A DNA stretch of 64,000 nt from a virus (Duplodnaviria; Caudoviricetes). The DNA lies in IMG/VR virus record IMGVR_UViG_3300041964_000148, one strand, 5' to 3'. Of the stretch, positions 12,312-38,433 are shown piece after piece (the stretch's first letter is position 1; every line of letters begins with the position of its first letter). Under the pieces are notes generated by a model. The model saw only the letters and a program-made list of their open reading frames with translations. It did not search any database and had not been told where the DNA came from. Both the position numbers and the translations under genes were made by a program.

Positions 12312-12664
12312 AATTTTTTGTCTCGATTAAGCCAGAGCTACTGGACGGGAATTTTTCTGTGTTTCGCTCTATCTTCCCTGACAATAAAATCCCCGTTACA
12401 GCGCCTGTCCCAACTTTCGATATCCCGCCCATAGTCGCCATCGCAAATAGACTTTGCCCAGAAGATCATTTGGGATTTAAGCTAGACGCCTCTCGCCTGA
12501 CCCTAGAGCAATATTTGGCTATGTACAAAATATTTTTCAAAGACAGGGGTGAAGTAGAACTAGGCTCAGAGTTCGTTGATCAGTGCAACCCTTTGCGAAT
12601 TATACGTGTTAATTATCGACACGTAATTGCTGTTTTTACTGAAGAGGAGAGCGATCGCATATGA
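12308..12664 (+). CDS. Hypothetical protein
   Basis: ATGA overlaps on both sides. Confidence 0.65.
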   Translation: MKFFVSIKPELLDGNFSVFRSIFPDNKIPVTAPVPTFDIPPIVAIANRLCPEDHLGFKLDASRLTLEQYLAMYKIFFKDRGEVELGSEFVDQCNPLRIIRVNYRHVIAVFTEEESDRI

Positions 12665-13056: not shown

Positions 13057-13087
13057 TTAAAACAACCGATACACAAGAGGAAGCAAC

Positions 13088-13276
13088 GTGGAGAAAACTC
13101 TTAAAGTCAGATTTTGGATTGAATTTGGATCTGAATATGTTGAACAAATCCTTGATATTAAGGTGCCAGAAAACTACACCGAAGAAGACGTTAAGGCAGC
13201 ATACAAAGAGTGGTTTTGGGAGATTTTATCGGGGGCATGGGACGTAGTTAAAGAAGAAAGCCAAAAGCTAGGTTAA
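13088..13276 (+). CDS. Small acidic phage protein
   Basis: 62 aa; GAGG ribosome-binding site; AYKEW..W motif. Confidence 0.65.
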   Translation: MEKTLKVRFWIEFGSEYVEQILDIKVPENYTEEDVKAAYKEWFWEILSGAWDVVKEESQKLG

Positions 13277-13332
13277 GTCTGATCTGCCCACATTAGGCGA
13301 TCGCACACGTAATTTACAACAAAAGCAAAACC

Positions 13333-14361
13333 ATGAGCATGAAAAGCGCCCATTCCTGTGAGGAGATTAGGGCAGCACTAGAGGCGGAAGGATATAAGGT
13401 GACTCAGTATCCCTTTAGGGACTTTGCTTCTATCCCCGCTATTTGTTCTAATTCTCATTCTTGTTTAGTGAACTGGTATAGTTTCAAAAAAGGTTGTAGA
13501 TGTCAAGAATGCCGCAGAGAAAGGGTGCGACGACAGGAAGGAGTGCTACCAGGTAAGAAGATGATTCCGTTTGAGGTAGTAAAAGAAGAAATTGAGAGGA
13601 CAGATTACAGGCTAATTACTACGCTGTCCCAGTATAGAGGTGTAGGCAATTACATTGAAATAAAATGTCCGCAAAATCACTTCTATAAGACCAAGTTTGG
13701 AGAATTCCGAAAAGGCAAGCGTTGCAGAAAATGCCGAGTTCTAAATACTCGCGGAGAGAATCACCCTATGTGGAACAAGGATCTTTCTGATGAAGAACGC
13801 TTTCTTCGACGAGATAGTAGGCAGCATGAAGAGTGGCGAAACAAGGTCTTAGAACGAGATAGATGGGTTTGTATTTGCTGTCAAGGACGTACCTCAAAAG
13901 ATAATCCTCTTTGCGCTCATCACCTAGAAAACTACAAAGGCTTCCCGGAGTTGAGGTTTGAGGTTGAAAACGGAGTCACCTTATGCAAAGAATGCCATAA
14001 ACGCTTTCATGGAGTTTATGGTTTAAGAGGAACGAGGTTAACGCAGTTCATAGAATTCAGCCAAACAGAGGGTTTCGACTTTGACCCAGAAAATGCCCTA
14101 ACTTTCAAGGAATACGTTCCTACTTCCCAGCCAGCTCAAACGAAAAGAAGCAAGGTTCTTGAGATTGTCAAAAACAGTGATCGCCCACTTACGGTGAGGC
14201 AGGTAAATGCTGCACTGGGTTTAGATGACAAGGAGATGCTGTACACCAGGCAGATACTTACCGAAGCTTGCCAGTCTGGTTTATTAAATAGATGCCGCCT
14301 CCCTCTAGAAACGTGCAAAGATCGAAAATTTCACTTTTTTCTGAGGGATGTCACCTTATAA
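13333..14361 (+). CDS. HNH endonuclease with N-terminal Zn-ribbon repeats and C-terminal HTH
   Basis: WRNKVLERD..CICC..AHHL..NGVTLCKECHKRFH; C-x3-H..CxxC repeats. Confidence 0.9.
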   Translation: MSMKSAHSCEEIRAALEAEGYKVTQYPFRDFASIPAICSNSHSCLVNWYSFKKGCRCQECRRERVRRQEGVLPGKKMIPFEVVKEEIERTDYRLITTLSQYRGVGNYIEIKCPQNHFYKTKFGEFRKGKRCRKCRVLNTRGENHPMWNKDLSDEERFLRRDSRQHEEWRNKVLERDRWVCICCQGRTSKDNPLCAHHLENYKGFPELRFEVENGVTLCKECHKRFHGVYGLRGTRLTQFIEFSQTEGFDFDPENALTFKEYVPTSQPAQTKRSKVLEIVKNSDRPLTVRQVNAALGLDDKEMLYTRQILTEACQSGLLNRCRLPLETCKDRKFHFFLRDVTL

Positions 14362-14430
14362 TCAACTAAGGAAAAAATTTACTAAAGGTCCAAAGCCGCT
14401 CACATATTCTGTGAGCGGCTTTTTTGCGTT

Positions 14431-17400
14431 ATGGATGAACATTATGGACTCTATGCACAATTTTCTCTTCAGATCGACCCCCAAACCAAGACAAATATGG
14501 GGTGGGTCAAGTCGCAACTCGGCGGGATCGAGACTGCCGTAGAGTCGTTATCCAGTAGTCTAGAACGCAATAACATCGCATCCCAGTTTAAAGCGGATGC
14601 CACCCAGACGCAAAGCGCCGCCCGACGCATGACAGGCGCTGTTGATCAGATGGGTGACAAAATGAAGGCGGCAGCGAAACGGATTGACCCCTTGAAGAAG
14701 GAGTTCCGAGCATTACGAGCCGAGGTCAAATTAATAGATTTTGGGGACATTACCAATGATCGCCAATTTAAGAAGGCGAATAATGAAGCCCGGAAATATA
14801 TCACGACCCTCCAGCATTTAGAAACTCAGATTCGGGGGGATACGACGGCTGAACGCGAATTTACCGCCCAACTCAAGCAACAGCAACGGGTGATGGCGAC
14901 ACGCATGGAAATGCAGGAGCATCAACGAGTTGCCGCAAAAGCTGCTGCGCGTGTGGGAGAGTTTCAAGTTGTCCAACAGGCAGGGCAACTTCTGGTAAAC
15001 GACAAACTAGTCGGACAGGCAAAGGATGCGATCAATGTCTTTGCCACCTTTGACGACAAGATGGCTGGGGTCGCCGCTATTACGACAGCGACGGGAGATA
15101 GCCTAGATGCCCTGCGGGAAAAGGCTAAATACTTAGGTGCGACAACCCGTTTCACGGCATCAGAAGCCGCCGATGCGATGTCTTTCTTGGGGATGGCAGG
15201 CTTTAAAACAGAAGCTATCCTTTCTGGGACTCAATCCACCCTCGACTTAGCTTCCGCAGGACAACTAGGATTAGCGGAATCAGCCGATATCGCCTCTAAT
15301 GTCCTAAGTGGTATGCAACTCAAGGTTGAAGACTTGGGTCACGTCACAGACGTAATGGCAAGGACAGCAACTAGCGCCAATACCAACATTCAACAAATGG
15401 GCGTGGCGATGTCTTATGCCGCTCCCAACGCGGCTCTATTTGGGGCGACGCTCGAAGAGACATCGGCTTTGATCGGTGTGATGAGTAACGCTGGTGTACA
15501 AGCAGATAAGGCAGGTACAGCTACCCGTGGTGCCTTCTTGAAGTTAGCTTCTCCCGTAAAGGAAGGGAAAATTGCTCTAGCAGAAATGGGCATGACCCTG
15601 GTTGATTCCTCTGGGAACATGAGGAACGTTATTGAGATATTCAACGAACTCAACGACAAACTCAAAATTAGCCCTGACACCTTAAAGTCTATCCAAGACG
15701 CGGGCGAAGATATTGACTCATTGGGAGAAGTGTCTCAGTCCAAACAAATCCAAGCCTTAAAAGGCATCTTTGGAACAACTGGGATATCCGGTGCATCGGC
15801 GGCACTAGGTCAAATCAAAGAATTAAATCGACTGGCGATCGCAACTCGTGCCAGTTCCACCAACACTGAGCAACTTACTCAATACTTTACAGAACTTCGT
15901 GATATAAAAATGAAGCCGGGGCAGGATATTTTTGCTGCAATTATCGAGCAAACCCCCAACTATACAGAGGCTGTTCGCCAGATTGACGAGGCAAACCTCG
16001 CACTGATGCAGGTAAACCTCAAAACACTTAATAGCTTGGATAGTAGTCGTCTAACAGACTACTTCCAACAAGTTAAAGGGATTAGTACTGCGCCTGGGCA
16101 AAGTCTACTTGCTGCGGTTGTAGAAAATGCTCCTGATACTCAAAGCGCCCTCAACCAAGTCTCAATTGCAATGGAGCAATTGGGGATTCAGGTTAAAGGG
16201 CAAGTTGGATCAGCCCGGTTGATGGCTCAGGTAATGGAAAATAGTCTTCCAGGAAGCTTCCGCGCACTTGAGTCAGCACTAGAGGCAGTAAAGGTTAACT
16301 TTATTGAACCCTTGGTTCCATTAATCAGAGGGATAACAGACACAGCCACTAGGTTTGCTCTATTCCTCGCCAACCTTCCTGCCCCCATCCGTACAACCAT
16401 CAGTGTTGGGGCGGCGCTAACAGTGGGCATGGGAGCGTTGGCGATCGCAATTGGGGCAGCGGGCGTCACACTTTTTGGTTTTCAACAAGCTATGGCAGTA
16501 ACGAACCTGGCGTCTTCCTCACTCGCGGCAGGTTTGATACCCCTTACTGGTTTCTTTGATACAGCACAAAAAGCTATTATTGCAACAAATCCATTAGAAA
16601 CTTTCTTCAAGCGTAACACTCAACTTGCCTGGAGATTTTGAGAAAGCGGCAGCCGGCACATTTGACGAAACCATAGCAGGGATGAAGCTATTAGGACGGC
16701 AGGCAATCCAAACCGGAAAGCCTTCCTCGTCATGTCGAGATCCCTAATGCTCTCCCCGATTGGTTGGGTATTGGTGGATTCTTGCTCCTGAATACAGTGC
16801 TAGAGCAGGTTGTCCCAGGTTTCAACTTGCTGGGAACTGTCCTCGGTGCGATCGCTGCTCCTTTCGGTTTTATATACGGCTTACTTAAGGGCATCATCCA
16901 CTCTTTCCTTGATCTTCTAGGCTTAACTGGATCTGGGGCGATGGGTACGATAGCCCCTGTATTTGGCACCATTACTAATGCAATTGAACTTGCAGCTAAG
17001 TCATTTTCCCTGTTTGCCGAATCAGGGGAGCGGATTGGAGAGCGACTGGGAAAGGCAATTACACTCCCATTTGAATTAGCTGGGCAAGCTATTGGCTCCT
17101 CTTGGGATCGAACAATTAGCTTTATCCGAGGAATTCTACGTCCCTTTGCTGACTTTGTTCAGGGCATTGGGCAAATGTTAGTTGGGTTCCTCGCCGAAGC
17201 CTCACCAGGTCCCACTTTCTGGATACGAAAGAAGTGGGCGATGACAGTACACTTCTTGCAAGGACTATTTGAGCGCCTCAAGGTAGGTGCGATCGCCGTG
17301 GGACAGCAGTTATTAAATGCTTTTACTACTGTTCTCCCTCAACTCTCCAGTGCAATTTCCATTGCGACGGTATTTGCAGAACTATCAGGGATTATTAACC

Positions 17401-20400
17401 CTGTACAAGGGTTAGCGATCGCAATTGGGAACACAATTTTTGGTGGCATTGTGGAGTCGATGGGTAAGTCACTAGATGAAGTGATCCCCATCTTTATTCG
17501 CCGCTTCTCCCTTGTTGCCGCGTTTGGTGGGTTCCTTGCTCAACGATTGAACTTCCTCCAGCCCCTGCAAGCTCAAATTATTGCCGGACTTGCGATTATT
17601 ACAGGGCTTTCGACGTTTTACCTAAAAACGTTCAGTTTCGACATTGCAAGTATCTGGCATACTACTGTTCAAATTATCCAAGGGGACTTACAGGCATTGG
17701 CTGGGGTCGCTAAAAATGTTGGGCTTCTTTTAATTAGTTTTCTCGCCGAAGCCTCACCGGGACCTACCTATTGGATTCGCCGGAAGTGGGCGATGACGAT
17801 AGAATTCCTCTCAAGCTTGTTTAAAAAAATTCGCTCCGCCGCAGTTCTTGTCAACCAAGCTTTCTTAGGGATTGGCGATGTCTCATCAGATCAAGGAATT
17901 GTTGCCCGCCAACAAATCCTTGAAGGTGTCGTTCTTAGCCTAGTCTCAGGCGTCAAGCTATTAGGCTCAGTTGCCACTGGAGTAGATTGGGCAATTACTC
18001 AGATTAACCAGTCGGTGGCTTCAGCCATTGACAATCTTGATCTCTTGGGATTTACCCTCCTCACCCTTTCTTCCCTGCCAATGACCCTTATTGGGCAACT
18101 AGCTCAAGGATTTGAGGCGGTACTTCCCGAACTTGCCCTTTTTGTAGGAGTCGGACTCCCGCGAGCGATCGCCTACGCATTGCCAGGAGCAGTCGCGATT
18201 GCAATGAGTACAGGACTCATTCAAGGGCTAGAGAAGGGCTTTGCCACTTTTGTTGCTGGGATGACGGAACGCTCCAAAGTTGCGTCACAACAATTGTCTC
18301 AGATGTTCGATGCCAACTTGAAGCAGGCAATCAACCGAGGACTATCAGAAGGCGTGACAACGTTTGTCCGAAATCTTCCTAGTGTCTTTCCCGGCATGGA
18401 AGATTACCAGTTTACGTTTGATTTTGATCAAGCGTATGCCGATTATGAAAGTCAACGAGAAGCGCGAGTTCAGGCAATTACCTCTTATTTACAGGAAGTA
18501 GGAGTTGTAGCCAACCAGGTAGGGCAACAGCTTCAAGCAGCACTAGCTCCCTTGCTCTCATTTCGGATTGGGGACATATTCCCCGCTCTTAGCTTCCTTC
18601 CTCCCTTAATCCCCCTAGTTACCGCCATTGTCCCTGCTTTTCAATCTCTATCGCAGGTTGTCCAGTCCCCGGCTGTACAGGGAATTGTTAATTTCTTAAC
18701 CGGAACTGTCCTCCCAACGGCATTACAAACATTGCGTGCGATCGCTTCGACGGTTGGTTTGGTTTTTAATGCTTTTATTTCACTCCCCCTAACTGCTGCA
18801 CTGATCGTAATTACTCGTCCCATTGTTTCTGCCTACCGAGAACTCCTGGCATTTCTCCCGCAGATTCCTGGGATACTCGGACGAGCGATTGTTCAACTTG
18901 CCCGAACAGCCGCTACAGCCGTGGCTAATTTACTTGCGCGAATTCCCTATATTGGGGAGACCGTCTCTCGTGCATTCTTGGGAACCGTAGAATTCTTGAT
19001 TGCAGTCACTCCGGTATATTTCCGACTACTGAGAGGACTATTTGAACGCTATTTCTTGAAGACAATTCGCCCATTACTTACTAGGTTCCAGCAACTATTT
19101 GGTCAAGTTGCCCAAGGGATTGTTTACGCCTTAGAAAGGGGATTTAAACCATTAGGTACACTGCTATTCCGAGCGCTTAATCCAATGAGCGCTTTCAAGC
19201 TAATTGGGACATACATCCGTACCAAGGGCTTCGCCGGACTGTTTAAACCTGGGTTGTTCATGCTCAACCCATTTGACTTATTCTTTGGGGGAATTCCAGG
19301 GATCTCTTGGGCAGTTAGAACAGCCGCGACAGCGTTCTATCGCATACCCTTCCCCGCCGGAATAATCGATAAGAAATCGCGAGAATTATTTCAAATCTTT
19401 GCAGGCTCAGAAGCCTTCCTGGAAGCAGAGCTTAAATCCCGACGACTAGGGCGAACCATGCTCGTCTCGATAGAAGATATCTTGAAAACTCAGCCAGCGA
19501 TTGGTCGCTTCCTAATACAAATCCTCCGAGGGGTGTTAATGATCAACCCTCTCGTCCAAATCATTGGTCGTATTGCCCTAACTACAATGTTTTGGTACTC
19601 GGCATTGAAGCCGATTACACCGGAGATGTTTGAGGCGATCGCTGCGACAAAGATGCTGGGGCTTTCCCTTTCTCCAGTCGCAAGTATCCTCAAGGGAATG
19701 CGCTTCGTGTTTGTTGACATGAACGAAGCCTTTATGAGGTTTGCTCGTGGCATTATCCCTTTCATGCGCGGAGTACAGAACTTCTTTAATGTCTTAGGAA
19801 CAATTACAGGCGTAGTTGTCCACGAGACTGCCGGAATTACAAGTATCCTCTTAAACTTATTTAAAGCCACATTCGGAAACCTAGGCTTACTTGTCGCTAT
19901 TGGTTTTGCTGGCGCGATTGATGCAACGTTAATTGGATTCCGAGCGATCGCCCAACTAGCACGTCTTAAAACTGAGCAGTATGGGGATGCTTTAGTTGCC
20001 CTATTTCAGGGAAATATTGGTCCACTACTTGGACAGATTGCTAGCGACGTAATGGGTGTCGTTGGGTTTATATTCGAGCAAACTATTGTGCGGGTTACGA
20101 AGGTAGCACTTAGCCTTGCCTCTACTGTGGGCGGTGCGATTCGAGCGACATTCCAAGAAATTGTCCGATTTATCCGTGACCCGTGGAATGAAAGTATCCG
20201 CCTCCTTAACTTGCTTGATGCTGCGGTAGATCGCGTACTAGGGAATATTGCAAGGACGATTAACGTCTACATCCAGCAACTTCAGCTCGACAGGCTTGCC
20301 CGTTTCCTCTCTCATTACTGGGTACAGATTGCGGCGATCGCAGACGTTCTCCTCGCCGTATATGGGGTGCTTAATCCCATGCAGGCGGCAATCTCTGGAC

Positions 20401-23400
20401 TGATTGGGTTAGGGTTATTTCTAATTCAGGAGTACCGGACAGGCTTCCAAAACCTAGATGCGTTGATTCAAGGATTGGCGCATCCCATTGAGCTTATTAC
20501 CAATGCCATTAAAGCAATGGTGGCGGCGCTGGGCATCTATATCCCACCGGATCTAACCAACATCATTGCTAATGTTACAGAGCAATTTATTAAATCCCTT
20601 CCGATTATTACAGGGGGAGTATTCCTGATTGCCCTGCTCATCAAACGCAACATCGGCGAGGCATTTAGCACTGTGACAGGTGGGGTAATGAAGATCGTCG
20701 GGGGACTGATGCAGGCGGTAGATGCGACACGAGTTTTTGGGGGTGCAATTTCCGACGTAGCACAAAGTCCTAAGGTACAAGCAAAGGTTGGCTCTCAAGT
20801 CCACAAAGTCCGTCGGCAAGAATCTGTGTTGGGCGTCCGCAATCCATTCGCCTATTCCCAAAATGAAGATCAACAGAGAAGAGCCGTTGCGCTTGGGGAT
20901 GAGCGGGTGGCAAAGAGTCGGGCAGCCCTACGGTATCAGGATGAGATCAACAAGAGCCTACAGAAGATTGTTAAGGAGGAAGAGGAAGAAATTAAGCGGT
21001 TGGCGCGATCGCGCAATGCTCGTGACCAAATCATGGCATTTGGAGGAAAGCTCCAGCGCCCCGATGGCTTCTCTTATGAAGTAGCGCCCTTACTAGAGAA
21101 GAAGAAGGGGCTGCTTGGATTAAATCGGCTGGAGTTGAGCGAGACAGGCAAAGCTGCGGTTGCAGATCAAGCAAGGAGAAGAATTACGTCTCCAGACTCC
21201 GAGTCTGCTATGGGGACTCGAATGCAGGCAGCAAGAAGATCTGGATTAAGAGCCGCATTTGAAAGACACAGTGGAGAGCCTATTCCAGATGACGTTCTCA
21301 GGAAACTAGCGCAGCAGGGAGATTACGGCATCACCAATCTCATGGGAGCCTTCCAGAAGGCGATGGAAAATCTTCATGTTAAAGATTTCCAAGTTAACAA
21401 GTTGTACGTTGCCGAATTTAATCGACCCCAAAATTTCCCAACCCAAACACCTATCGACTCAAACGCTTTTGATATCCAACTCAATAGGTTTCGATCGAAT
21501 CCTATTCATGCCAACAAAGAAATTATCAAAAAAGCTAAAACTGCTTCAGAAATTCAAATTGAGATTGACCAAGCTACTACCACTGGGGATACAAGCTATG
21601 CAAATTTGATTGGCAAGTTTAAACAAAGACTTGAAAAGATGTTTGAGGTTCCTGCTGGGAATTCGGCTATTGTAAGCTCTAATGTTATTGAGGAACACGC
21701 AAAGACGCTATCCGCTAAATTCAATTTAAGTGAAGAGGAATACCAAAAAGCAAGAAAAGCTGTTATCACTGACTTGCTTCAGAGACAGGCAAAATCTATT
21801 GGCAAGACTGTAACTGACTTCAATGATTTTGAAGAGGCGAATATTGAAGCCCTGAAGCAAGCTAACCGAAGAGTTGAAGGTTTTCATCCCATCGCGACAA
21901 ATACTGATGTCTTAGCTCAAGCGGTTCGCAATATAGCAGGGCAAACGCAAGCAGAAGTAGATCAACTTAATCAAACTAGGCGCTCCTTTTTTAGTAGCCT
22001 ATTTGGCTTCACTGGAGTTCCTCAACTCATTGAAAATTTCCAGTACAATCGTCGCCTCTTCCGTCGTAGTCAACAAATTTCGCGACGGGTTGAGGAAATG
22101 GCGAGGCAAGAGTCAAAAGACAAAGCATCAGCACAGGCAGCGCGGCAAAGGGGACTAGAGGCGCTGATGTCTAGATCTGGTTCTGGCTATGACTTCCACA
22201 CTCAATCCGCACAATTTTATGCCTCCAAACAAATCAACGCCCAAGAACAGGCATTCATTGAATCTTGGGTAAAAAATCGTAGCTTCAAAGTTGACATTAC
22301 TCAACACCAAGCTTTCCGCCCAGAAGTTGACAAGATAATTGATAGATTTAAGCAACTTTCAACCAATTTAACTTTAAATACTGTTGATGACGTTAAAAAG
22401 TTCCGACAGACACTTAATGATGTATCTACACAGATACAAACACAACTATCAAAAGACGAACAAACTGCTCTTAAAAAGCTAGAGCAATACCTCCTACACG
22501 GAGCATCTGAAGCTCCGAAAGGAGGTCAACTATCTTTTGGTGAGCGAGATTCTATCCTCGCGGCAATTAACAAAAGTATTGCCAATAATAAAGGAGCCTT
22601 CGGCATAACAGGAGATCACAAGGATATCTCCAAGGCAAGTTTCAAGAAGTTATATGACCAAAATGAGGTCGCCATAAACCGCATCATTTCACAGTTCGCA
22701 GCAACGGGTGAATTCGTTGCCAAAATTGGGGGCAAAAATGAGTATATCGAAGGGGCGTATAAAGAGATAGAGAGAAAGCTTGGACTAGGAGGAGGTGGAA
22801 AGGGAAGTTCACTACGACGGATTCAAGACATTAAGTTCAGTAATACGATTCGTCAACTAGGCATTAATTTTGGACTCTTTGTTCAAAGCATCGAAGAGAA
22901 TGTTGCAGAGTTTCGGGAGCGGATTTATAGAGGACTGGATAGCTTTGAAGGTTGGCTTGAATCCCATCTCCGTTTCCCCAGCCTAGCTACTGGAATTGTT
23001 GATCTCATTCGTCGTCCATTTGAGTTCCTCTCAAACAATATAGAAGCTATCTATACAGCACAGAAGATAAATATCCAAAATATGGCAAATCAGATTAGGG
23101 CTGATTTTGTCGGGTCTAATGTTGTCAGCCGAATTAATAACCTTAATCAGAAATATAAAGAAGCAAGAGAAGCCTCACTTCAGACTATCCTGCAATCCTC
23201 CAGGGATGAACGAATAGCTAAACTGGGTCGAAAGAATGCTTTCCAAGGGGCACAGCTAGGTCCTGTGTGGGAAGAGTTAAAGAAACGGCAACTTAGTCAA
23301 GCTCAGTCCGGTCAAACTGTAAGCGCATTGATGCGTGGGGGAATGAGCGAACAAGCTGTTCGTTCCATGTTAGACAGGGAACTGCGACGACAGGGACTTT

Positions 23401-26400
23401 CTAGGGATCAGGTTACAACCGAGATAGATAAGGTTCTTGCTAGCCTTGGGAATCAAGCTCGCTATTCAGTGGGCGACATCTTGAAGATGCGAGGCATTGA
23501 TGCAACTAAGGTCTCCAAGGCGCTTGAGTCTGCTCTTTCACTAGAAGCTAAGGCAGTAGAGCAAATCCTCAAGAACCCAAACTATACGGCGCGAGCTGTG
23601 GGTCCATTCCAGCTCTTTATGGTTCGTGACATAGTTGGCATTCTAGGCGACACCTTCCGAGGAATTGGAGGTACGATGGTGCGTCTTGTTCGCCCTGTTG
23701 CAAAAGATGTAACAGCGGCATTTGGTAGTAATGTGTTGACTCGTATCGCTAATGTGACCCGTGAAATTAATAAATTCTTAGAGATTGGAGCATCTCGATT
23801 AGAAGTAGGAATTATTAAAGTTGTTGGGCGAAACCCGTTAAGTCGGGCAATTAATCGCTTTGCGAGTAGCCTTGGTGGACAGACAGATCTACTAGCTCGG
23901 TTTTTTGACAAACAAGCTGGTATTGTTGCCGATCAAGCTCCTAAAACCTTTACGGTTCGGATTGTTAATGCCGTTCAGTCCATCTACAAAGCTGTTTCAG
24001 ATAATCTTACAAAAGCTTATAACTACGTTCAAGCTCAAAAAGGCATCCTTCCTGCGATCGCACGGCTTATGGGAGGCGTTCGAGATTTCTTCAAGGGATT
24101 GTTCCGTAACAAAGAACTTGAAAAAGTTCAACAACAGATTAGTCAACAACGAAGGGCGTTTGAATCTAACGATCCAAGAAAGTTCAAGGGTGAAGAGCAG
24201 CAAGCAAGAGCAGCTTCCCGTCGTCGAAGGATAGCCGAACAACTTCCGGCATTAGAAGAGAAACGCAGGCTCTTAGCACGTAATCCAGTCCAGAAAATGG
24301 CTGATTATGTAAGCTCTAAAAAGCTTCCAGAGAGAGGATTTAATCGGATAGGACAAACCTTTGAAGGGATGAGTAGTCGCCTCTCTGAGTTCGCCACGGT
24401 TCTCCGTGATAAGCGAGTAAAAGCAGAGGAAAAGCGCCGAGGCGGGGTTTACGATCCAGACTTATATGATCGCGTTTCGCCAAGAGGTCAAAGACGCGGG
24501 GCAAGTGGGCTGGGACAAACGATGTCGCCCCAAAACAACGACCAAATGGGAGGCGTCCGACCAAGAGAAGGGATGCGATACATAGGGCGAGGGATTGTAG
24601 GTGCAACACAAGACATCCTGCCCTTGACCACCAAGATATTTTCCGACTTGCTCTCGGCTGGAGCTAAAACAAGCGATCGCCTGGGACAATTCTTCCGAGG
24701 AGCGGCGCTAAAAGTTCAAGGGGCATGGTGGCAATCGGCGACCGACATCATGGGACGTAGTTGGCGAGCAATGGTTACAGCAGCAAAAGGAGTCGGAAGC
24801 TTCATTATTGCCCGATTAAATCATGGAAGTGCCGACGTAACGGCAGCAGCCTGGGATCGCACTCAGCATTCAGTTTCCCAGGATATGCAACAGATGGCTG
24901 AAACTGCTCAAGCCACTGGACAACATATTAGCGGAAGCATGGAGCAATCGGCAACCCGCTCCGTTGGGTTCTTTTCTCAACTAGGAAACAGCATTGGCAG
25001 AGTCGGCAAAGCCGGGATGGCGATTGGAGGAGCAGTTACAGGCATAGGTTTCGGAGCGCAGACAGCCGTATACTCCCTCTCTACAATGGGATTTGTTAGC
25101 GAGGATACATCCGAGAAACTTCGCAAATTCTTTGAAATCTTCACTCTTTTTGGTGCCGTAGGCGGAATAGTTACTCCGCTCTTTGCCGCAGTAGCATCTT
25201 CTTTGGGAGCCATTGGCGCGATCGCCGGAACAGTCGGCACAGCAATTGTCGGGGTTGGCGGTGCGATCGCTTCTGTTGTTGGACTAGGAAGTGTCGCCTT
25301 CGCCCCAATTATTTTAGGTATTGCAGCCGTTGGGCTTGCATTTGCTGGATTGTACTTAGCGATTAAATCCAACTTCCTCGGAATTGGCAATATACTTACT
25401 ACCCCTATCCATTGGATCGAGGCAGCATGGCAGGGATTCGTAGATCGATTTGGGGCAAGGTTGATGCCAATCATTCAACCTGCATTGAATGTCGCACAGG
25501 GTTTAATCAACGCATTGAACCATAACCCCACCCTCCGCATTCCAGAAGCTTGGGAGGCTATGAAGGAAAGAATCGGGGCTGTATTTAACTGGATGTCTTC
25601 AACAGCCGGGGCAATTGGCAATGCGATCGTTGGATTCTTTAGCCCTATCGGTAAATTATTCTCACACGGCGGAGTACGCGAACAGCCAGTAATTCAACCC
25701 CGCGAAAATAGCATTCAACAACTTGGACATAAAGTTCAAGAATCAACCTCAGTAGTCACTGAAAGAGCAAGTGGCTTAGGTCGTGCGGTTAATGATCTAG
25801 CTGCCAAAACCCTTGTTGATATCCTGGCAAAAATAACATTACTTGTCGGAGGAATAGTTCTATTTCGCCAACAAGTTGGGAAAGATATTGCCAATCTGGG
25901 CGCTCAGGTCGTATCGAGCCGCAGTATGCCTTCTTCTTTGATTAATGCGATTGGCGTAAGTGTTTTGGCTAAAACTTTTGCTACCTCACTTGGTATAGCC
26001 AAGATCGTTAGGGGCGTCACATCTCTAGGTAAAATATCCGAAGATCTGCTTAAGCCAATCCAGAAGTTAGCTTCAAACATAGGACTGAAAGCTAATACGA
26101 CAGGAAGACGACCCCAAACCGCACTAGAGTTAACATCCGGAACACTCAAGGGACTAGGAAAACTAGGGGACAAACTTCGACCTATTGCTGGATACATACC
26201 AGCGATTGCACTCGCTGCACCTGATGTAGCAATGTTAGGAAGCGGACTTATTGGATTAAGCTATGCCTTTAGCGAATTTCCTGTCTTCCTGTTAAAGTTC
26301 AAGTCACTTCTTATGTTGGCTGGTGGCTTTGCCTCTGCGATCTCTGGGGTTGTGCTCTTACTGGAATTGGCAACCAAACAGACAAATGTACTAGGAGTGC

Positions 26401-29400
26401 TTGTTGGTAGTCTAGTATTCGTTGTTAAAGCTTTTGCCGGAGTATTCAAGGGCTTTCAGAAAGCTTTTGCTGAAATTTCAAACCCCCTGAAAGCCTACTA
26501 CGATGACTTTATCGCCACAGTCCAAAGGATGGGTAAAGCGGGCGATGATTTTGGACAAAAACTTGGATACGGGCTAGCTCAAGCTCTAATTTATCCTTTA
26601 AACTTTATTTACCAAGCTTGGCAGGGTTTAGTAGACTGGTTCGCACGACTCCCTTTGGTATCACACGCACTAAATATAGGGCAAGGGTTGGTAAATGCTC
26701 TGAACCACGGCGCGGCGGACGTTACAGCCGATGCTTGGGAGTCTACTGAGCAGCGAGTAGGAGGAGTTTTTGGTTCCTTGGCGTCAGCCGCAAGTGGTAT
26801 CGGCAATACAATCGCTGGGGCTTTCAAGCCAAGACCTCAAAAGAATAAAGTATTGCAACCCCAAAGTCAAGTAGAAGAGAACCCGGAGTCTCTTGGCTCT
26901 GGAATCATTAAGAATGCAACAGTAGCCATAGCATTTCTGCGCGACAAAATTACAGCTCTTATTAAGTCAATCGGGCTATTAAATACAAAGGTTGACTATC
27001 AGTCTCAATTGCTAAAACATCAGCTTCGACTACAACAAGTCAATTTAGTTCGTTCTAGTTGGGGTATTTTAACGAATCGAGAGAGGAATAGTAACTTATC
27101 TGGACGCGCCTCCAATTTGCCGTGGGTGCAAAGGCGTCAAGCTCAAGTGCGAGGAATTGGTGGGCTTAAAGAGGCGGCAGAAAACCCGCGTCTGCGGCGA
27201 CTTAAGCAGTTAGGAGGACTGGTTGGGGAGTTAACTGGACTAAAAGGGGGAGCGATCGCTTCCTTGCTAACAGGTATTACCTCGATCAGTGGGGCGTTAG
27301 GTTTACTTGTCCTAGCATTCTCTACTGACTTTTTAGAAATCCGAACTAAGACCGTTAAGCTTGCCCAATCTATGCAGGGTGCATTCAAGGGGGCAATTGA
27401 CTGGATTACAGGAGCTTGGACTGGCTTTAGCAATTGGTTTGGAAAGATGCCTTTAGTTCGCCAAGCCCTTGCAATTGCTCAAGGTTTAATCAACTCATTG
27501 AACCATTTCCCAACGGTCAAGATTCCAGAAGCGTGGGAAGAAGCAGGCAGGCGGATTGTCGGACAATTCCATTATTGGCTAAATGTTGCTAAATGGGTAG
27601 GGGTTGCCATTGCGGGCACCCTGATTACGGCATTAACTGCAATTGCTGCGGCGACAAATCCGGTAATGGCTGCAATCACGGGATTTACTTTAGGAATAAG
27701 CGCACTAGCTTTCTTTTCCTCAAAGATACTAGCAGGATTTGGTGCTGTTCTTGACTGGTTTGGGAATCGCATTCTTGCCTTAGATGTCAAGTTTGCTTCG
27801 GTAAACATAGGTGCTATAGCAGGACCATTGTTTGGCTTAAGCACCATATTCGCCACCGTAACTACCGCAGGAACCCTACTGGCAGCGGTTCTAACAGCAC
27901 CTGTATTTGCCCCTTGGATTGCTGGAGCTACAGCACTAGGAGGAGCGATCGCCGGAGCCTTGTTCTTGTGGCAGCGTTTCAGAAAGCAATCTGAGATACC
28001 TCCGTCCGTAGAACAACCGACTCCCACCCCAGGATTTAGAGAACGAGTGGGGCAGAAGGCTCAGGGAGTCCGAGATGCGATTGTTGAGCAAGGTGTAAGG
28101 GCTAAAAATGCTGGAATAGGTGCGGCTAATGCAGTTGTGGAGCAAGCTACGAAGGTTAAAGATGCTGGAGTAGGTGCGGCTAATACAGTGGCTCAACAAT
28201 ACCAGTTGTTCGCTTCGGCTGCGGCTGACGTAAGCTCTATTCGTCAAAGCTTACAGGCGAGTTCTTCTCTAGGAGATCTAAACAGCAGCTATCTGTCTAA
28301 AATTGTTGATTTAATTCAAAATCTTGTTGATTTTAACAAGCCGAAACCTAGTCCGGAGCCACCTCCAATGGTTACAGGACAGTCGCTTATCGTTGGCTCC
28401 GGAGAAGTTAATAACCCGAATGCTATCCAGAACAAAGTAGGGGGGATCGGTGCGGCTATTCAAGATACTGTTTTGGGTCAAAACGCTTTTGGAAAACTTC
28501 TTTTAAGTCCTATTGCCAGAGCGCCGTTAGATGCAATGGGATTAAAAGATACCCAGAAACGGATCACAAAGGAAAGAGAGCGTGAGCGAATCAGGCAATC
28601 ATTAGGACAACAGAAAACTGGTGTCCAATCCTCACTACCTGGTCCCCTGGGATTATTTAGCAAAAAGGATGAGTTTCAAGAAGCAATTCAATCCCAACTT
28701 CAGGGGCAAGAACTGAAATTAGCCGAAAAAGTAATTAGTGGAGCGCAAAGCTCTAGCGCCCTTGTCCGAGATCAATACAAGGGTTTGGTCACGACGATCA
28801 CTCAAAACGGACAAGAGCAAGTTGTCCTAAATGAAAAAGGGCAAAATTACTTAGAAGGACAACTTGCAGGACTCATTAAGCAGCAAACAGGATCGTTCTC
28901 TGAAAAAGAATTGGCAGTTACGGCTCAGAAAGCGGGATTCAAAGGAACTCCCGAACAATTAAGGCAAGCTGCCTTGGAGGGACTAAGAGGGAAAGATAAG
29001 GATCAGTTGTCCGCTCTAGAGCAAGCCGCAGGCACACTTCCTGGGACGAAGGTTGATTACCAGGAACTTGCTAGCGACAGTTTGTCACGGTTAGTTGAAA
29101 TCGCCCAGAACATCTTCACTTGTGTTGACTACATCGCTGCCCTTCTACAACCAAAATCCAAGGTTCCTAAGTCTCTAGCTTCAGGGGCATCAATTCCCGT
29201 TGATTTCCAACCTACTCCACCTTCTCCTCCAGCAGAGCCAAGTCTTGTATCTAAGGCGGGAGATGCAATCAATAACACGTTATCCTCTCTCGGTGTCCAC
29301 GCCAAGACGCCACTCAGTACCGGGGCAGCAGGAGCTGAATCAATAACAGAGGTTCTAACTCGACTTCGTAATTCTCTGTCAACGACCAAAGAGCCAGTAG

Positions 29401-32400
29401 AATACACCTCTATTCAAAAACGTATTGGGCAGTTGTTCGCTGGCAAGTTTGAGCAACCCAAAGGAGTCCAGGCTCGCCTTTCAGATCAAGTAGGCAAGCC
29501 CCAGCCCACTGCCCAAGGCATAGATGCTGACCCATCAAAGGCATTGGCGTTTGCCGCTCAAAATACGACACAAGCTTGGAATAATACCACTACGGCGATC
29601 GCGTCCAACATTGATTCCTTAGTTAGTACGTCTGCCGACCAAGGTTACGAATTACAAAAAGCAGTATCCGAGGGTTCTCCAGGACCTACTTATTGGATTC
29701 GAGAACACTGGAGTAAAACAGTCGAGGCGATTAAGGGATGGATGCATGGATTAGGCAGTACATCCCAGAAGGTTGGGGAAGCAGTAACCCAATCCCTAAC
29801 CCCCCAGGAGATGGTTCAAAAGGCGAAAGAAGGTATCCAACAAGTCGGGAAAAGTTTGCTTATTTTGGGGGGAGACATTGGAGACTTTATTCGTAGGGCA
29901 ACAGTCGCGACACTGACTCTTAACTTCTTCGAGCTAGGAGATGCCGTTGGCGACCTTGGTGGAAATTTTGGCTACTTTGCTCAAGGAGTAATGACTGGCT
30001 TTGGGCAGATGGGCAAGAGTGCGATCGCCTTCTGGTTGATGGCAATGAGTTGGGCAACGCCCTTCTTTGTAATCCTAGGAGGAGTTACTTTTGTCACTGC
30101 CGTCTTGGTTGCGAACTTCTTGGGGCTACGGACTATTCTTGGTGGAGTGATCCGGATTGGAATTGGGGCAGGACAAATCCTGATTGCGGTCTTGGGAGGC
30201 TTGGGGAATACGGTTAAGTCCCTTGGCAAGATTGCCCTTGGTGTATTTAAAGCACTCAGGGGAGACTTCTCACTACTTGACGAGGGAATTGCTCAACTAA
30301 AAGCCAGTTTCACCCAAATGAAAGCGGGCGTAGTTCGGGGGCTTAAGACGATTGGGCGAGGCATTCGGCAGATCTTTACTGGGATTGATCAAGGAATCCA
30401 GCAGGTATTCCCCTCGTTTAAGGGTGTTATCCACTACGTTCAGGCTATTTCCTCGGCATTAAAAAATCCAGAAGCTGCCGCACGGATGCTGGCGCAAGGG
30501 ATTGTCCGAGTTGCGCGACAAATTGGAGACACCATCCAAACTATTCCTGGATTCGTAGCGCGTGGGGTACAGAAGGCGTTTAAGTGGGTGAAGGACGGTG
30601 CTAATGCCGTACTCAAAAAAGGACAGCAGGTTGTTGCTTACTTCAGCGGGTTGTCGTTTTCAGAGGTAGGCGATCGCTTCGTCACGGTTCTCCGTGATGT
30701 GGGAAATGCCATTGTTCGCCTACCTGGAACATTGACGGGGGCGGTGGAGCGGATGATACCCGCCCTCAAGGCTCCTTTCAACTATCTACGAAGATTTATT
30801 GGGACTTTTATCAATGAGATGAAAGCCTTGCTCCCACCGGGAATAGCTGCATCGATAGTGCTGGGATTTGAACGTGCGGCTGGGTGGATCAAGGCAATCT
30901 TTAGCCGGATTAAATCAGGATTGCGCGGCTTTGTAACTCAGCTTGGCTTTGAAGAGCAGTTTAATGCTGTCACCCAAGGTATCCGAACACGATGGCAGCA
31001 GTTAGTTGATTTTGCAACTAAGACCAATTTATTTGGTTCTATTCCAAAAGATATCAAGCAGTTTTCTGCTGCTTTTGTAAGGGGCGTAGACTTAGCTCAA
31101 GCCATTTGGACTCGATTTACAAATTGGCTGGCATCTACGACCTTATTCCCTAAGATTTGGACGCAACTTGAGACGTTGGGAAGTCGATTCACTCAATTTG
31201 CCGAGAAATTGGGCGAAAAATGGGAGGGGGTTAAAGGGGAATTTGCGACTGGGAATATGTTCGCTGGCTTCTTTGAGAGGATGAGGCGTCTAGGGACTCG
31301 TTTTCAGGAATTCGTTATCAAGCTAGAAGAGAATTGGCGTGGATTTGCTCGAATTATTCCAGGTATCCCCATCTTCCAATCTCTATTCACCGAGCTTTAT
31401 GTGTTTGGCGATCGCTTTAGTGGGCTTGCCAACTTCCTGGAGCAGCAATGGCGAAAGTTGGCGCAGTTTTTAGGTACAACGTCACTAGTTGGAGGTGCGA
31501 TCTCGACCATTGAGTTTTTGGGGCGAAAGTTCACTGAGGTTATTGGGTTTGTCAAGGGAGCCTGGGAACCTTTCACCGAGTTTTTAAACAGCAGTGACTT
31601 CTTCTCAAAGGCATTCGAGCAGCTTCGCAAATTTGGGAATTTTATCCCTCAACTAGGTGAAACGACGAGGCAGGAATTCTCTAAAGCCAGGGAATTTATT
31701 GAAAATGTATTCCAGGATGTCCCTGGAGCAGTTAATCGCGCAGTTGAGCGCATTAGCAATGCTTGGCGAGGATTTACAGACCAATTCCAGTCTATTTTGT
31801 CCCCGATTGTTGATTTTGCAAAGAAAGTTGCTCAGTGGCTAATAGACGCATTGAACCATTCACCAACGGTCCGCATCCCAGAGGCGTGGGAAAAGGCAGT
31901 TGCTTGGATTCGAGGGACTATAGAATCTTTGGTTGCCCCAGCTCAAGGGGTAGCTGAAAAACTAACTGGAATATTCCAGTCTACAACAAATCGTATCTCT
32001 GACTATTGGGCTGGATTTAGCCAAACGTTTGAGACTCACGTTGTCCCTGCCCTGAACGCACTAAAACCTCACCTAGACGAGTTGAGAGAGGGCTTCCAAG
32101 GATTTACAGAGCGACTACAGGCCGCGCTTTCTCCCTTAATAGAGAGATTTGGTCAAATCACATCTCAAGTTCAAGATTTTATTCAAAGGATTCGAGCGGC
32201 AAGGGAACCTATAGACGCAACAGCAAATTCCGCTGTCAATTTAGGTGATTTGCTAGCACGGGGATTAGCCGGTGCCATATCGACAATCGAGCGAATGTCC
32301 CCCGCTATTTCAGTTGTTCTTAAGATATTAGGAAACTTAACGATTGGCTTTTTGGAATTAAGCGATCGCATACTTGCTGGGCTTAGTCCGGCTCTATCCA

Positions 32401-35400
32401 CCATTAAAGAGCTTGCCGATAAGGTATGGCGATTTGGCAACGCCTTTACAGAGGTATTTGGAGCTGCCGTTGCTCCGGCAGCCAAGGAACTACTTCCGGT
32501 TCTTAAGAAGCTACTAGCTATTTATGGGCGAGTGCTTGCGTTATCTGCTGCCCTTCCCTTTGGAATGATCGCTGGTGGCTTGGCTGGAGTCGTGGTTTCC
32601 ATGAAGGCGCTACTGAATTTATTTGAGCCAATGAATCAACGCACGAAGGAACTCTTAACTTCCTTCAGTAGCGCACAAGATATGGGGAAGGCATTTGGGG
32701 AGATTGTCGGCAATTCCATTTCGGGAGTAATTAATACCTTAAAAATTCTCCTGGAAGTGGCGGCTACGGTGGGTGATACCTTGACGGCACCACTAAAGTT
32801 CATTGATGCCGCATGGGAGAAAACGGGAAATGCGATCGGGGGAGTTTTAGGGCGATTAAAGCGACAAGCAAAGGGCGCTGGGAAAGGATTTCAGGGGGAT
32901 CTCTCTGAGGCGTCTCCTGGTCCCACCTACTGGATACGCCAAAACTGGGCGAAGACAGGGGACTTTGTGAGCAATCAGATAAAAGAGATGGCATCGACAG
33001 CCAAGACCCAGGGGAATGGCATGAGGCAATCGCTAGAAAATGTCATGGGAGGGGGCGACGCATCTACAAATATATTTCGATTTGCCCAGCAAAATGGAAA
33101 CAAGGCACAGCTCGTATCTATTTATGAACAAATGGAGGCAATGAGGCGAGCCGGCGCACTTGAGCAGCAAATCCGAGAAAAGCACCAAGCTGGCTTATTG
33201 TCTGACGCTAGGGCTGAAAAGCAAATAATGAAACAGAGGCAGCTAGGGCAAAAAGCACACCTAGCAATGATTAACACTGTTAGGGAGATCCAGACTTCGG
33301 CTAGGGAGAGAGAAGCTTCGGCTGCCGGAGCAACTCAGGAGCGAAATCAAAAGTTAGCCAACAGCTCAAGGGGGCTTTTCCTCAGTATGGGTTCTGCCCT
33401 ATCTAACTTCGCTCCACAACTTGCAACACCTCTATTCATGCTCAACGACTTTGTAGATCTTTTCATAGATCTCAAAGATGTACTTCCCCAAATCCGAGCA
33501 TTGTTTGGAGCGACAGAAGCGGCAACAGCCGCTAATGCAGCGACAACGAGTGCTGCTAATGGAGTAATTGCAGCGTCAGAAGGAACCGTGACGGCGGCAG
33601 CCGCGAGTTCAGCAGCAGCCCAAGTCCAGGGCTCTGCGGCATCTAGTGGAGCAGCAATAGGGGAAGCTGCCGTTGTTGGGGGAGCTAATAGCTTTATGGC
33701 AACGACTTACGGACTCCTAGGGAGGGCAGCTCAATCGGCTTACGCCAACATGATTAAACCCCTGATTCCTCTACTTCCCTGGATATTAGGTGTGTCTGCT
33801 GCACTATTCATTCTCTATCAAGGTTTCAAAAATAATTTCTTAGGCATAGGGGAGGCGATCAAAGGAGTTGGCGGCTTTATTAAAGAGTTTTTCGATTTAC
33901 TGCTTGGTGGAGTATGGCAAACAATTGCCTCGATCTTTCTCAATATTGAGGTTCAAATCAGTGCTATCGGTCGCACACTTGGTCGGGTCGGTCATATTTT
34001 AATGGAACCGTTCCGCCCACTCTTGGCGGCATTTGGTGTTTCTGGACAACGCTCTCTGTTGGGGAATGCAATGGTCGTGACGGTCAATTTGATCCTCCTT
34101 CCTTTAAAACTAGTTGCAGGAGCAATTAATCTCATCATTAGCCTCCTCAGTGGCTTTATTCAAGGCGTAATTCTAGTTGGGGGAATCATCCTCAATTTCA
34201 TCCTGCTCCCTATTCGGTTGATCAACGCCGCGATTTACGGCGTCATGATGGGCTTCAATTCTGTGATGCTCGGTGTCAACCAAGCGGTCAACTTATTACT
34301 TCTTGCCCCTCTAAATATCGCCACGGCTGTTGCCTACAAGATTGCCAACGTAATCGCAAAAATAGGGCGAGTAATTACTGCCTTCATTCTTTCTCCCTTC
34401 TTTGCCGTCCAAAATGCCATCATGAGGGCGATCAGCCCTGTGGTGGATTTTGTCTTTAAAGCAATTGGATTGATCGCAGGGGCAGCAGCTCTAATTTTCA
34501 CCATCTTAAATCCAGGGATGGTAATTGGGACGTTCTTTGCCTTCGTCACTGGGGCAACATTAGCGGCAAAAGCAATTCGATTCACATTAGGGATTCCACT
34601 TAAAGCTATCGGTTTCCTGTGGCGAAACACGTTAGGAAAGATGGCTGCTGCGGCAGTGACAGATTCGACAGTGGTAGGTGGAGCCAATACGTTCATGGCG
34701 ACAACGTATGGGTTATTGGCAAACGCTGCACGATGGGCATATAAACAAATCTTGATGCCATTAATGCCTTTGCTCCCACTAATCCTAGCCGTCGTGGCAG
34801 TTCTCGGTCTTCTTTACTTGGGATTTAAGACCAATTTCTTGGGCATTGGTGATGTGATAAAGGGGTTTATAGGAGGGTTCTTACTGGTATTTGATGTTGT
34901 TTGGGGCGTAATTAAAGGAATAGGGGATGCGATCTCCCAGGTATTTGGTAGCCTGATAACTTCGGTTGGAGAAATCTTTGGGGCATTAAAAGAACTAGCC
35001 GGGGCTATTCTTGCTCCCTTCGACGCTTTATTCGGACTGTTTGGAGGAAATGGTGCCGGGGGTGGGGGATCACTTGGAGAGGCAATCAGTGCTACTGTCG
35101 GTTTTATTCTAATTCCCACTAAGTTTGTTGCCGATGCCCTTTCGTTAGTGATTCGGGGGATAACATCCCTGATTGTGGGAGTTATTAGGCTAGGAACAGC
35201 AATCATCAATAGCATTTTCCGACCCATCACCAGTACGTTAGGATTCCTTTCTCCTGTAATGGGAGTAATTCGGACAATTATTGGGGCGATCGGAGGGGTG
35301 GCATTAGGGATTGCGGCTCTAATCGGCTTGATTGGTTTTCTCGCTACTACCCTGATTCCGTTAATAATGACCGGAACCGCTATGCTATTTGGGATGATCG

Positions 35401-36362
35401 TATCGGGCATGACGTTCCTGATCTCTGCTGCCCTGCCTGCGTTAATCAGCGGCTTATTAACAGTTGCAACGGTTGTCATTCCCTTGCTGGTCAGCGCATT
35501 CTTGTTTGTCTCAACTGTAGCTATCCCAGGCATTATTAGTGGATTAACTGCGATCGCTACAACAGCTATCCCACTGGTAATGACTGGCTTGTCTGCTGCC
35601 ATTCCCTTTATCATCGCTGGGTTTGGCTTCATTGCGGCGACAGTTATTCCCGCCATAGTTGCTGGAGTAATGTTCATTGCAACCGTCGCCATTCCCGCTA
35701 TGATTGCAGGAATTGCCGGACTTGTAACTGCCGCCATTCCACTACTCATAACCTTTTCTCCAATAATCCTGATGGTTCTCGCAGTTGTCGCTGCGGTTGT
35801 CCTCGTTAAATTAGCTTTCGATGCTGTCGTTGGGGCAATACAGAAAGTCATTCAGGGAATAGCGAGTGCAATCAGCTCAGTTGGGCAATTTTTCCAAGCT
35901 CTGCCCTTGATCGGAGGATTATTTGGAGGACAAAAAAATAATGCGGGCGATGGTTCCAACATTCAGGAATTCGCCGGTGGAGGTTTAGTCCTAGGGCAAT
36001 CCGCTCAAGCTGTCCCGGTGATTGCTCACGCGGGGGAATTTGTCATGACCGAATCGGCAACCCAGGCTAACCTAGGAATACTGCAATATCTTAACGCCGG
36101 AGGGAAATTAGCATTACCTGCCCCTAACGTTGGGGTAATGCCACCCATGCCCTTAAGGTTGCCGACTCCAGCCGCAGCCCCAGCGCAGGGGGCAGGAAGT
36201 GGGGCTGTGGTGATCGAAAATGTCAACATCAACTTCGAGGTACAAATTAATGCCAACAATGGAGTCGAGGCAGGGGATGAATTCTTGAGATATATCGAAG
36301 ATCCAAGGTTTAAAAAAGCAGTAAGACAAGTGTTAAGAGAATCAGTTGAAAGGATGAAGTAA
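14431..36362 (+). CDS. Giant phage tail tape measure protein (about 7,300 aa), interrupted here by three small indels at about 16610-16763
   Basis: TP901-type core (LREKAKYLGATTRFTASEAADAM..AGTATR), long amphipathic repeats, C-terminal FAGGGLV..AHAGEFVM. The gap between the two track ORFs reads as continuous protein-like sequence after three frame changes. Confidence 0.88.
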
Positions 36363-36364: not shown

Positions 36365-37507
36365 ATGGACAACTATCGGTTAACTCAGGCTCGGATACAA
36401 TGCAATGCCATCCAAGTTCTATTGCTTGCAGAAACCAAGGAATATGATGCTGGTTGGCTACCCCAGGCTAAATCAGTACTAAGAGACGAAAGTGGAAGAT
36501 TCGCTAGTAAAGAGGGTAGCTTCAAAGAAAAAGCAGAAGCTCTCTACAAAGAAGATGTTAAGCGCCATAATCGCGAATTTTCCAAGAAAGAATTTGCTAA
36601 ATATCTAAACTCTGTTCCTGCACATTTAGAAGCAGCCAAAGATTATGTTTTTGGGACTAGTTACAAGCAGAAAGTTGACGATTTAAGCAAGAAGTTAGGA
36701 GAGCTTGGGGTCGAACTGAAGAAAATCGCAACAAAGAAGTACAAAGAATTTGAACCCAAGTTAAAGGAGATGAAAGGGGAAGAGTTTGAACAGGCTGTTC
36801 AGGATGAATTAATTAAACTCAAACTTATAAACGAACGAACGTTCAAGGAAGACTTAAGGGAAGCTAAAACTGCCGAAGACATCAAAAAAATAATAAACCA
36901 ACATCAGGCAGAAATCATGAATGCTGCCATTATTGTTGGACGGGCAGTCGCGCTATCCGCTGGCGGATTAGCCGGATGGACTTTAGGAATTGTAGCTGGA
37001 GAAGTCCTGGTATCTGCAATATTTGGAGGGACAATACCAGCCTTTGCTACCATGTTCAATCAGGCGTTAATTGTTTGGGGAATTGAGGAAACAGCCCAGC
37101 CTGTTGCTGCTTATTTAATTGACAAGAAAGTTACTGACAAAAAATTAAACAAAGAGTACAAAAAATGGGCAGAGTTTGGGGTTGATGTGCTTGCTATTGT
37201 GATGGGTCAAAACCTCGCACAGATCATAAAAGTAGCAGAAGAAAAAGCTACGTTCAAAAAGGGTATGCAAATAGCTCAAAAGGTTATGGAAGATAACGCC
37301 AAATTGATGGCAGAACACGAAAAAAGTATCCTAACGAAGGTAGGATTAGACAAACTGCCAAAAGACTTTGATACCTTAGAAAGTGCTTATAAATCAGCAA
37401 TGAAAAAGGCGGCGGAACAGGGCAATTCCTTAGAGAAAGAGCTGTCAGAAATTAATAAGATCAAGCAAGCATACAACGACATTCGTAGAAGGCTGTTGGA
37501 ACAGTAA
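36365..37507 (+). CDS. Leader-family protein with hydrophobic hairpin
   Basis: Leader KEYDAGWL..SVLRDESGRFASK; Lys/Glu-rich helices; hydrophobic segment at about aa 185-240. Confidence 0.75.
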   Translation: MDNYRLTQARIQCNAIQVLLLAETKEYDAGWLPQAKSVLRDESGRFASKEGSFKEKAEALYKEDVKRHNREFSKKEFAKYLNSVPAHLEAAKDYVFGTSYKQKVDDLSKKLGELGVELKKIATKKYKEFEPKLKEMKGEEFEQAVQDELIKLKLINERTFKEDLREAKTAEDIKKIINQHQAEIMNAAIIVGRAVALSAGGLAGWTLGIVAGEVLVSAIFGGTIPAFATMFNQALIVWGIEETAQPVAAYLIDKKVTDKKLNKEYKKWAEFGVDVLAIVMGQNLAQIIKVAEEKATFKKGMQIAQKVMEDNAKLMAEHEKSILTKVGLDKLPKDFDTLESAYKSAMKKAAEQGNSLEKELSEINKIKQAYNDIRRRLLEQ

Positions 37508-37508
37508 T

Positions 37509-38409: not shown

Positions 38410-38433
38410 ATCACGGAGAACCGTGACATAGAA

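Follow-up and report, generated by a model that had tools for sequence, protein, structure and literature searches.

We analysed a stretch of 64,000 nucleotides (nt), hereafter the window, from the uncultured tailed-phage record IMGVR_UViG_3300041964_000148 (Caudoviricetes), in which positions 14431-36362 on the + strand are filled by the coding sequence of a tape measure protein (TMP). A preliminary description of this DNA spoke of a 21.9-kb coding span. Coding does extend across the whole span, but the listing of open reading frames (ORFs) divides it, in the window as written, between two ORFs that are not in the same frame. The first, ORF A (14431-16641, + strand, frame 1), encodes the N-terminal 736 amino acids (aa) of the TMP, and the second, ORF B (16764-36362, + strand, frame 3), encodes the remainder in 6,532 aa. 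We consider it likely that the two belong to a single gene for a TMP of 7,310 residues, carried by an uncultured phage with a circular-mapping genome of ~242 kb that probably infects cyanobacteria.

The two ORFs are bridged by an open stretch of 150 nt in frame 2 (16598-16747), whose translation is also homologous to the protein of the relatives described below. Frame 1 closes at 16641 (stop-to-stop), where an error of +1 base creates the TGA that terminates ORF A. Frame 3 is open from 16695 to 36362, and position 16764 is the first start codon of ORF B. The span measures 21,932 nt, which is not divisible by three; a net correction of +1 gives 21,933 nt, i.e., 7,311 codons, or 7,310 aa and a stop. 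The coding frame cannot be ascribed to chance, because a colinear ORF is retained by 16 relatives, the most distant of them at about 25-30% identity. Judged by these comparisons, 14431-36362 is a real TMP gene with a true product of 7,310 aa. This length is reached after discounting three consensus errors, and near-identical genomes encode an intact protein of 7,312 aa, in good agreement with the earlier estimate of about 7,300 aa.

Both ends of the protein resemble known TMPs, one on each ORF. The N-terminal part carries the TP901-type tape-measure core domain at 15010-15867 (+ strand, TIGR01760, residues 194-479 of ORF A), matched with an E-value of 1e-54 and 185 bits for a curated cut-off of 28.8. 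PF10145 matches within it at 15115-15774 (+ strand, residues 229-448; E 9e-45, 153 bits for a curated cut-off of 33.2). The same part of the protein is matched by 17 PHROG tape-measure families, and the core matches a solved TMP chain, 9g8s_w, when searched against PDB sequences with phmmer (E 1e-31). At the other end, the last 176 aa (35832-36359, + strand) are similar to the ends of known TMP families (phrog_24, E 1e-6; phrog_25241, E 5e-5). In the C-terminal third of ORF B (its last 1,756 aa) there are matches to ten PHROG families, eight of which are tape measure families. Apart from these, no family of Pfam or NCBIfam was recognised in ORF B, which gave only a sub-threshold match to an apolipoprotein-like helical repeat. 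Hence the N-terminal core and the typical C-terminal motif noticed in the preliminary description were both recovered by profile searches, and these matches identify the N-terminus as a TMP core of TP901 type and the C-terminus as a TMP end.

The break between the ORFs lies in a short junction (16629-16763, + strand), in which the alignment of alleles exposes three single-base differences in length. At 16629/16630 the window has an extra base, GCCTGGA for GCCGGA or GCTGGA (GCT in the JGI 3300018984 assembly, L021; GCC in the JGI 3300018892 assembly, L022; GCCT in the window). One base is lost at 16716 (GG-AAA, for GGGAAA in L021 and GGAAAA in L022) and another at 16763 (GG-TTG, for GGGTTG in L021 and GGATTG in L022). 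All three coincide exactly with single-base differences between the alleles of L021 and L022, and at each of them the window holds either both variant bases or neither. This is the output expected of a consensus caller at mixed sites, and we therefore read the indels at 16630, 16716 and 16763 as consensus errors. L022 is itself a mosaic of both alleles; it carries the window-type allele over 15661-17039, differing there by three substitutions and the three indel sites, and it is in frame across 872 codons with no stop.

The unbroken ORF of 7,312 aa was found in at least four independent assemblies from different samples: L020 (ERZ27286101), L021, L023 (ERZ27286128) and L024 (JGI 3300018906). 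Their DNA was reached by anchoring on small neighbouring proteins. Database searches returned in addition a protein of 7,196 aa that is 97% identical (P0004) and its cluster-mate of 7,312 aa (P0024), each encoded by one ORF with a PF10145 domain. A product of 6,892 aa, which had suggested a further break in one sample, proved to be a fragment at a contig edge. The ORF B protein corresponds to residues 780-7312 of P0024 and is identical at all 6,533 positions once the frames are rejoined, with no mismatches other than two residues of the junction that are shifted in frame; ORF A is 96% identical to the same protein. Across the junction P0024 follows the window frames in the order 1, 2, 1 and 3, and the consensus of 14 family members continues uninterrupted. 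A single polypeptide running from the core to the C-terminal end, as in the TMP family, is thus absent from the window as written and present in at least four near-identical assemblies and in the window-type allele.

The contig contains two other indels of the same kind. An extra A at 38208 (AA for A in L008 and L011) leaves only 259 of the 299 aa of the gene next but one downstream of the TMP, and a run of five G instead of six at 51728 (G6 in L012-L015) breaks a gene of 313 aa into the overlapping ORFs 51312-51836 and 51686-52252. Compared with two to four independent assemblies over 26365-47508 and 42780-64000, the window shows no substitution at all, and the two indels are probably consensus errors. 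That this contig carries two further gene-breaking single-base indels, yet no substitutions, argues that the split of the TMP gene is a consensus artefact as well.

We weighed two other explanations of the split and rejected both. The gene might be truly broken, in a defective or decaying phage that makes a 736-aa N-terminal fragment and a separate protein of 6,532 aa. The window as given has three frameshifts and two in-frame stops, and the verdict on the indels comes from comparing assemblies. Against a true break, each indel coincides exactly with a polymorphic site, and the same allele, assembled independently, is in frame; the 19.6 kb downstream have no stop and encode a protein 100% identical to the intact relative; and two other single-base indels occur in a contig otherwise without substitutions. 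Moreover, the split products occur nowhere else: the 736-aa and 6,532-aa proteins are singletons among ~15 billion proteins and come only from the window's own contig of 245,281 bp. We regard a true break as very improbable. Alternatively, programmed ribosomal frameshifting could join the two ORFs, as it commonly does in the tail-assembly chaperone genes that adjoin TMP genes. This would take three shifts of different signs within 140 nt, no slippery heptamer is present at the three sites, and the relatives require no shift; a conserved frameshift site at the junction was found in none of them. We give this explanation almost no credence. According to the assembly comparison, then, the apparent division into two ORFs is an artefact of the consensus, and there is one gene, not two. 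The preliminary description had recommended polishing the sequence, which was apt given the three errors exposed. It had also named a truly split or pseudogenised gene as the outcome that would speak against a giant protein; what we found is an intact ORF in at least four assemblies and a window-type allele in frame in L022.

The junction lies near the right end of a divergent tract of ~4.3 kb (12504-16841), which accounts for all 192 substitutions between the window and L021, with none outside it. Inside this tract and directly upstream of the TMP start, the window carries an insertion of 1,035 nt (13310-14344) with an HNH endonuclease gene (ORF 13333-14361, + strand), which is absent from the 7,312-aa allele. 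HNH-bearing and HNH-less alleles co-occur in the same samples, and five short contigs (L003-L007) match the window allele over 12363-15525 at 100% identity (99.8% for L006). From the sequence, the tract looks like the result of endonuclease homing with co-conversion of the flanks.

The anatomy of the protein is given here in the residue numbering of P0024. The hydrophilic N-terminal region that contains the TP901 core (residues 1-600) is followed by a first hydrophobic block rich in Gly and Ala (16743-20648, + strand, residues 650-2075), with ~16 segments resembling membrane spans. Next comes a central hydrophilic region specific to the family (20871-24323, + strand, residues about 2100-3400), with 26-33% charged residues and a predicted structure that is nearly all alpha-helical. 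Residues 3400-6400 alternate between hydrophobic and hydrophilic stretches, and lead to a very hydrophobic C-terminal block (33750-35846, + strand, residues 6443-7141) with a mean Kyte-Doolittle value of 1.0-1.6 and ~20 overlapping span-like segments. The last ~170 residues form the TMP-type end. In total, the body has three large hydrophobic blocks, and 63 windows exceed a Kyte-Doolittle value of 1.6 in the 7,312 residues, which include one Cys.

Self-comparison, followed by a profile built from the copies, revealed nine copies of a three-helix module of ~125-135 aa, of which relatives have 4-11. All are on the + strand. Copies 1 and 2 (16926-17333 and 17430-17885) lie within the first hydrophobic block. 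Copies 3-9 span 24588-33044 (24588-24950, 25314-25649, 26448-26834, 27270-27632, 29400-29807, 31596-31985 and 32658-33044) and are separated by hydrophobic and Pro/Gln-rich stretches. The module carries the motif SPGPTxWIRxxW or the variant NHxPTxRIPEAWE, and two Trp positions are near-invariant among 100 copies. As far as could be found, no such module has been described for the TP901-type family.

We modelled the module (142 aa) and the central 1,151 aa as monomers with AlphaFold2. The module is predicted as three long helices with a predicted local distance difference test (pLDDT) of 80, and the motif is placed at the break between helices 2 and 3. The central stretch, modelled from 13 sequences, has a mean pLDDT of 67, ~80% helix and one small beta element. 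The modelled stretches are thus predicted to be almost wholly alpha-helical. Foldseek comparison of the central-region model with the PDB returned generic helical repeats only (E >0.05), and phmmer searches of PDB sequences gave no match outside the N-terminal core. Searches of Pfam, NCBIfam and PDB sequences, and the fold search of the central region, revealed no recognisable enzyme domain in the body. An RNA polymerase fused to the TMP, as in the Thermus phage P23-45, was considered and rejected, there being no Pfam, NCBIfam or PDB match beyond the TMP core and the central region being all-helical with no PDB fold match. Two relatives, P0005 (residues ~6538-6585) and P0007 (~6166-6213), have a weak match to DnaJ (26.1 bits for a cut-off of 27.8), which was not detected in the TMP of the window.

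The 16 relatives that are colinear with this TMP measure 5,066-7,596 aa. The 13 that reach about 5,800 aa can be aligned along their full length at ~25-85% identity, and the three shortest (P0017-P0019) are without much of the central region. Two members (P0010 and P0026) are also present in NCBI sources, and P0010 has been named only by JGI, as a "phage-related protein". Scans of the viral_contigs, genome_contigs and metagenome_contigs sets for relatives returned nothing close, and tblastn searches with the TMP body and the terminase found no match in 50,697 INPHARED phage records. No description of a TMP longer than 5,002 aa, or of this phage, was found in the literature. In sequence terms, this is a small uncultured family whose architecture is conserved and colinear at 5.0-7.6 thousand aa. 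We regard the present protein as a TMP of record-class length and not as a new kind of protein.

What tail might such a protein specify? In established tape-measure biology, for which lambda gpH (Katsura 1987, as cited in PMC9022992) and P23-45/P74-26 are the models, the length of the TMP sets that of the tail, with ~0.15 nm of tail per residue. The longest TMPs described, gp96 of P23-45 and its counterpart in P74-26, have 5,002 aa and go with the "longest known tails", of >800 nm to "nearly 1 um" (PMC10770324, PMC9022992, PMC10034513); the preliminary description had chosen this comparison, with correct figures. The rule of 0.15 nm per residue would predict a tail of ~1.10 micrometres, the length put forward in the preliminary description. 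Scaling from P74-26 (5,002 aa, >800 nm to "nearly 1 um") would give ~1.3 micrometres. From established tape-measure biology, the TMP would be extended as an oligomer in the lumen of the tail tube during assembly, and polymerisation of the tube would stop once its length is covered, at ~0.15-0.175 nm per residue, producing a tail of ~1.1-1.3 micrometres. On infection, the TMP would be ejected, and its hydrophobic blocks could insert into the envelope and line a conduit for DNA. The repeated helix-break modules may, more speculatively, reset the register of a coiled coil or contact the tube.

It is possible that the whole protein of 6.3-7.6 thousand residues serves as the ruler, which would give these phages the longest known virus tails, ~1.1-1.3 micrometres on a ~242-kb capsid, with the nine helix-break modules as periodic register or tube contacts. 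We put this forward tentatively, as a proposal that may well need revision. Several observations count against it or against the TMP gene as we have drawn it. The tail length is extrapolated from other phages, and the verdict of an artefact rests on the comparison of assemblies. Inspection of ~82 kb revealed no recognisable gene for a tube, sheath, capsid or portal protein, and the neighbour genes of the TMP match no known family. AlphaFold2 shows many short helices, not one long rod, and the predicted template modelling score is only 0.38. Part of the 5,002-aa TMP of P23-45 is a folded RNA polymerase, so that the length of a TMP need not all be ruler (PMC10770324). Lastly, the central region is partly absent from P0017-P0019 and could be dispensable cargo.

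These last points lead to another reading, in which the gene makes a single giant polypeptide that serves as ruler over part of its length only. The central region would then be cargo, folded or cleaved, that enters the host on ejection, as perhaps would the Pro/Gln-rich stretches, and the tail would be clearly shorter than 1.1 micrometres, e.g., 0.7-0.9 micrometres. P23-45 provides the precedent of a functional domain fused to a TMP (PMC10770324), and the shortest members of the family lack the central region or have a reduced version of it. This region is also confined to the present family: among 1.84 billion representative proteins just 11 contain it, of which the full-length ones all have 6,306-7,596 aa. 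It is predicted with moderate confidence to form many short packed helices with a small beta element. On the other hand, no enzyme family, relative of solved structure or fold match was found for any part of the body; the central region is ~80% helical, like TMP bodies; and every member of at least 6.3 thousand aa has it, conserved and in colinear position. We judge a partial ruler unlikely. The suggestion in the preliminary description that so long a tail perhaps serves to cross a cyanobacterial sheath is pure speculation.

The TMP gene is preceded by small ORFs of 118, 131 and 62 aa and followed by large ones. Eight ORFs fill 36365-47132 after it, with products of 380, 259/299, 473, 662, 191, 126, 590 and 408 aa. 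None of these upstream or downstream ORFs has a family match (no Pfam and essentially no PHROG), apart from a marginal match of the 662-aa ORF to phrog_167. The distal-tail and tail-tip proteins expected in 36365-47132 are thus unrecognisable by sequence. Elsewhere, the window encodes a terminase with a gpA-type ATPase domain, a GH19 endolysin, a clamp-like protein, methyltransferases and a PAPS-reductase-like gene. The closest relatives are on contigs of 242,079-242,772 bp, and the window's own contig of 245,281 bp includes the HNH insertion. As the ~242-kb contigs are broken at different points, they fit a circular-mapping genome of ~242 kb.

Two mobile genes point to a cyanobacterial host by their matches. 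The best plasmid-borne relatives of the RRXRR/HNH gene (8673-9833, - strand) are cyanobacterial, as are all 14 matching plasmid records. The same is true of a TnpB (OrfB_IS605) fragment (57746-58315, + strand), whose six best matches are cyanobacterial at 48-70% identity, the next ones being at ~35%. The cyanobacterial matches of the two genes include Acaryochloris, Nostoc, Scytonema, Calothrix and Picosynechococcus. A look-up of the GH19 endolysin in a protein atlas gave no host clue. Going by these matches, a cyanobacterium is the probable host, and the cyanobacterial host implied in the preliminary description thereby gains circumstantial support.

Other mobile or plasmid-like genes were seen on related contigs. 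A second, diverged copy of the RRXRR gene lies ~3 kb ahead of the window start (L017, 4588-5748). In a variant of the genome from sample ERZ27286124, an ORF of 604 aa for a group II intron-type reverse transcriptase/maturase/HNH protein (L025, 354-2168), absent from the window, stands just upstream of the PAPS-reductase-like gene. About 5-6 kb past the right end of the window (L028, 4195-5638), YoeB-toxin-like and Rep_1 rolling-circle replication genes lie beside an RNA ligase gene, and represent plasmid-like functions within the ~242-kb element.

Tests of the tape-measure rule have so far reached no further than ~5,000 residues and ~0.9 micrometres. If it still holds beyond, a ruler of 7,310 residues is a concrete target in the search for the longest virus tail, and opens the question of how so long a tube is put together, stays straight and does its work. 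The gene also marks a lineage of uncultured jumbo phages, present as ~242-kb contigs in many samples and probably infecting cyanobacteria. In practical terms, it illustrates that mixed alleles in a metagenome can produce false frameshifts in a consensus sequence.

Two groups of known systems can be set beside this protein. With the TMPs of the TP901-1 family, e.g., chain w of 9g8s (1,424 aa), it shares a homologous N-terminal core (E 1e-54 to the family, E 1e-31 to 9g8s_w), a body that is hydrophobic and, where modelled, predicted to be helical, and a TMP-like C-terminal end. It differs from them in being five to ten times longer, and in having nine modules of ~130 aa and ~1,300 aa of hydrophilic, predicted helical sequence that is specific to its own family. 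What it has in common with the TMPs of P23-45 and P74-26 is a giant single polypeptide, several-fold above ordinary TMPs, that implies an extreme tail length. There is no detectable sequence relationship between them, and the present TMP is 1.46 times longer; it has a TP901-type N-terminal core in place of the RNA polymerase, and no enzyme domain was found in it. The Thermus phages have genomes of ~83 kb, whereas the present genome, at ~242 kb, falls in the jumbo class and belongs to an uncultured phage whose host is probably a cyanobacterium.

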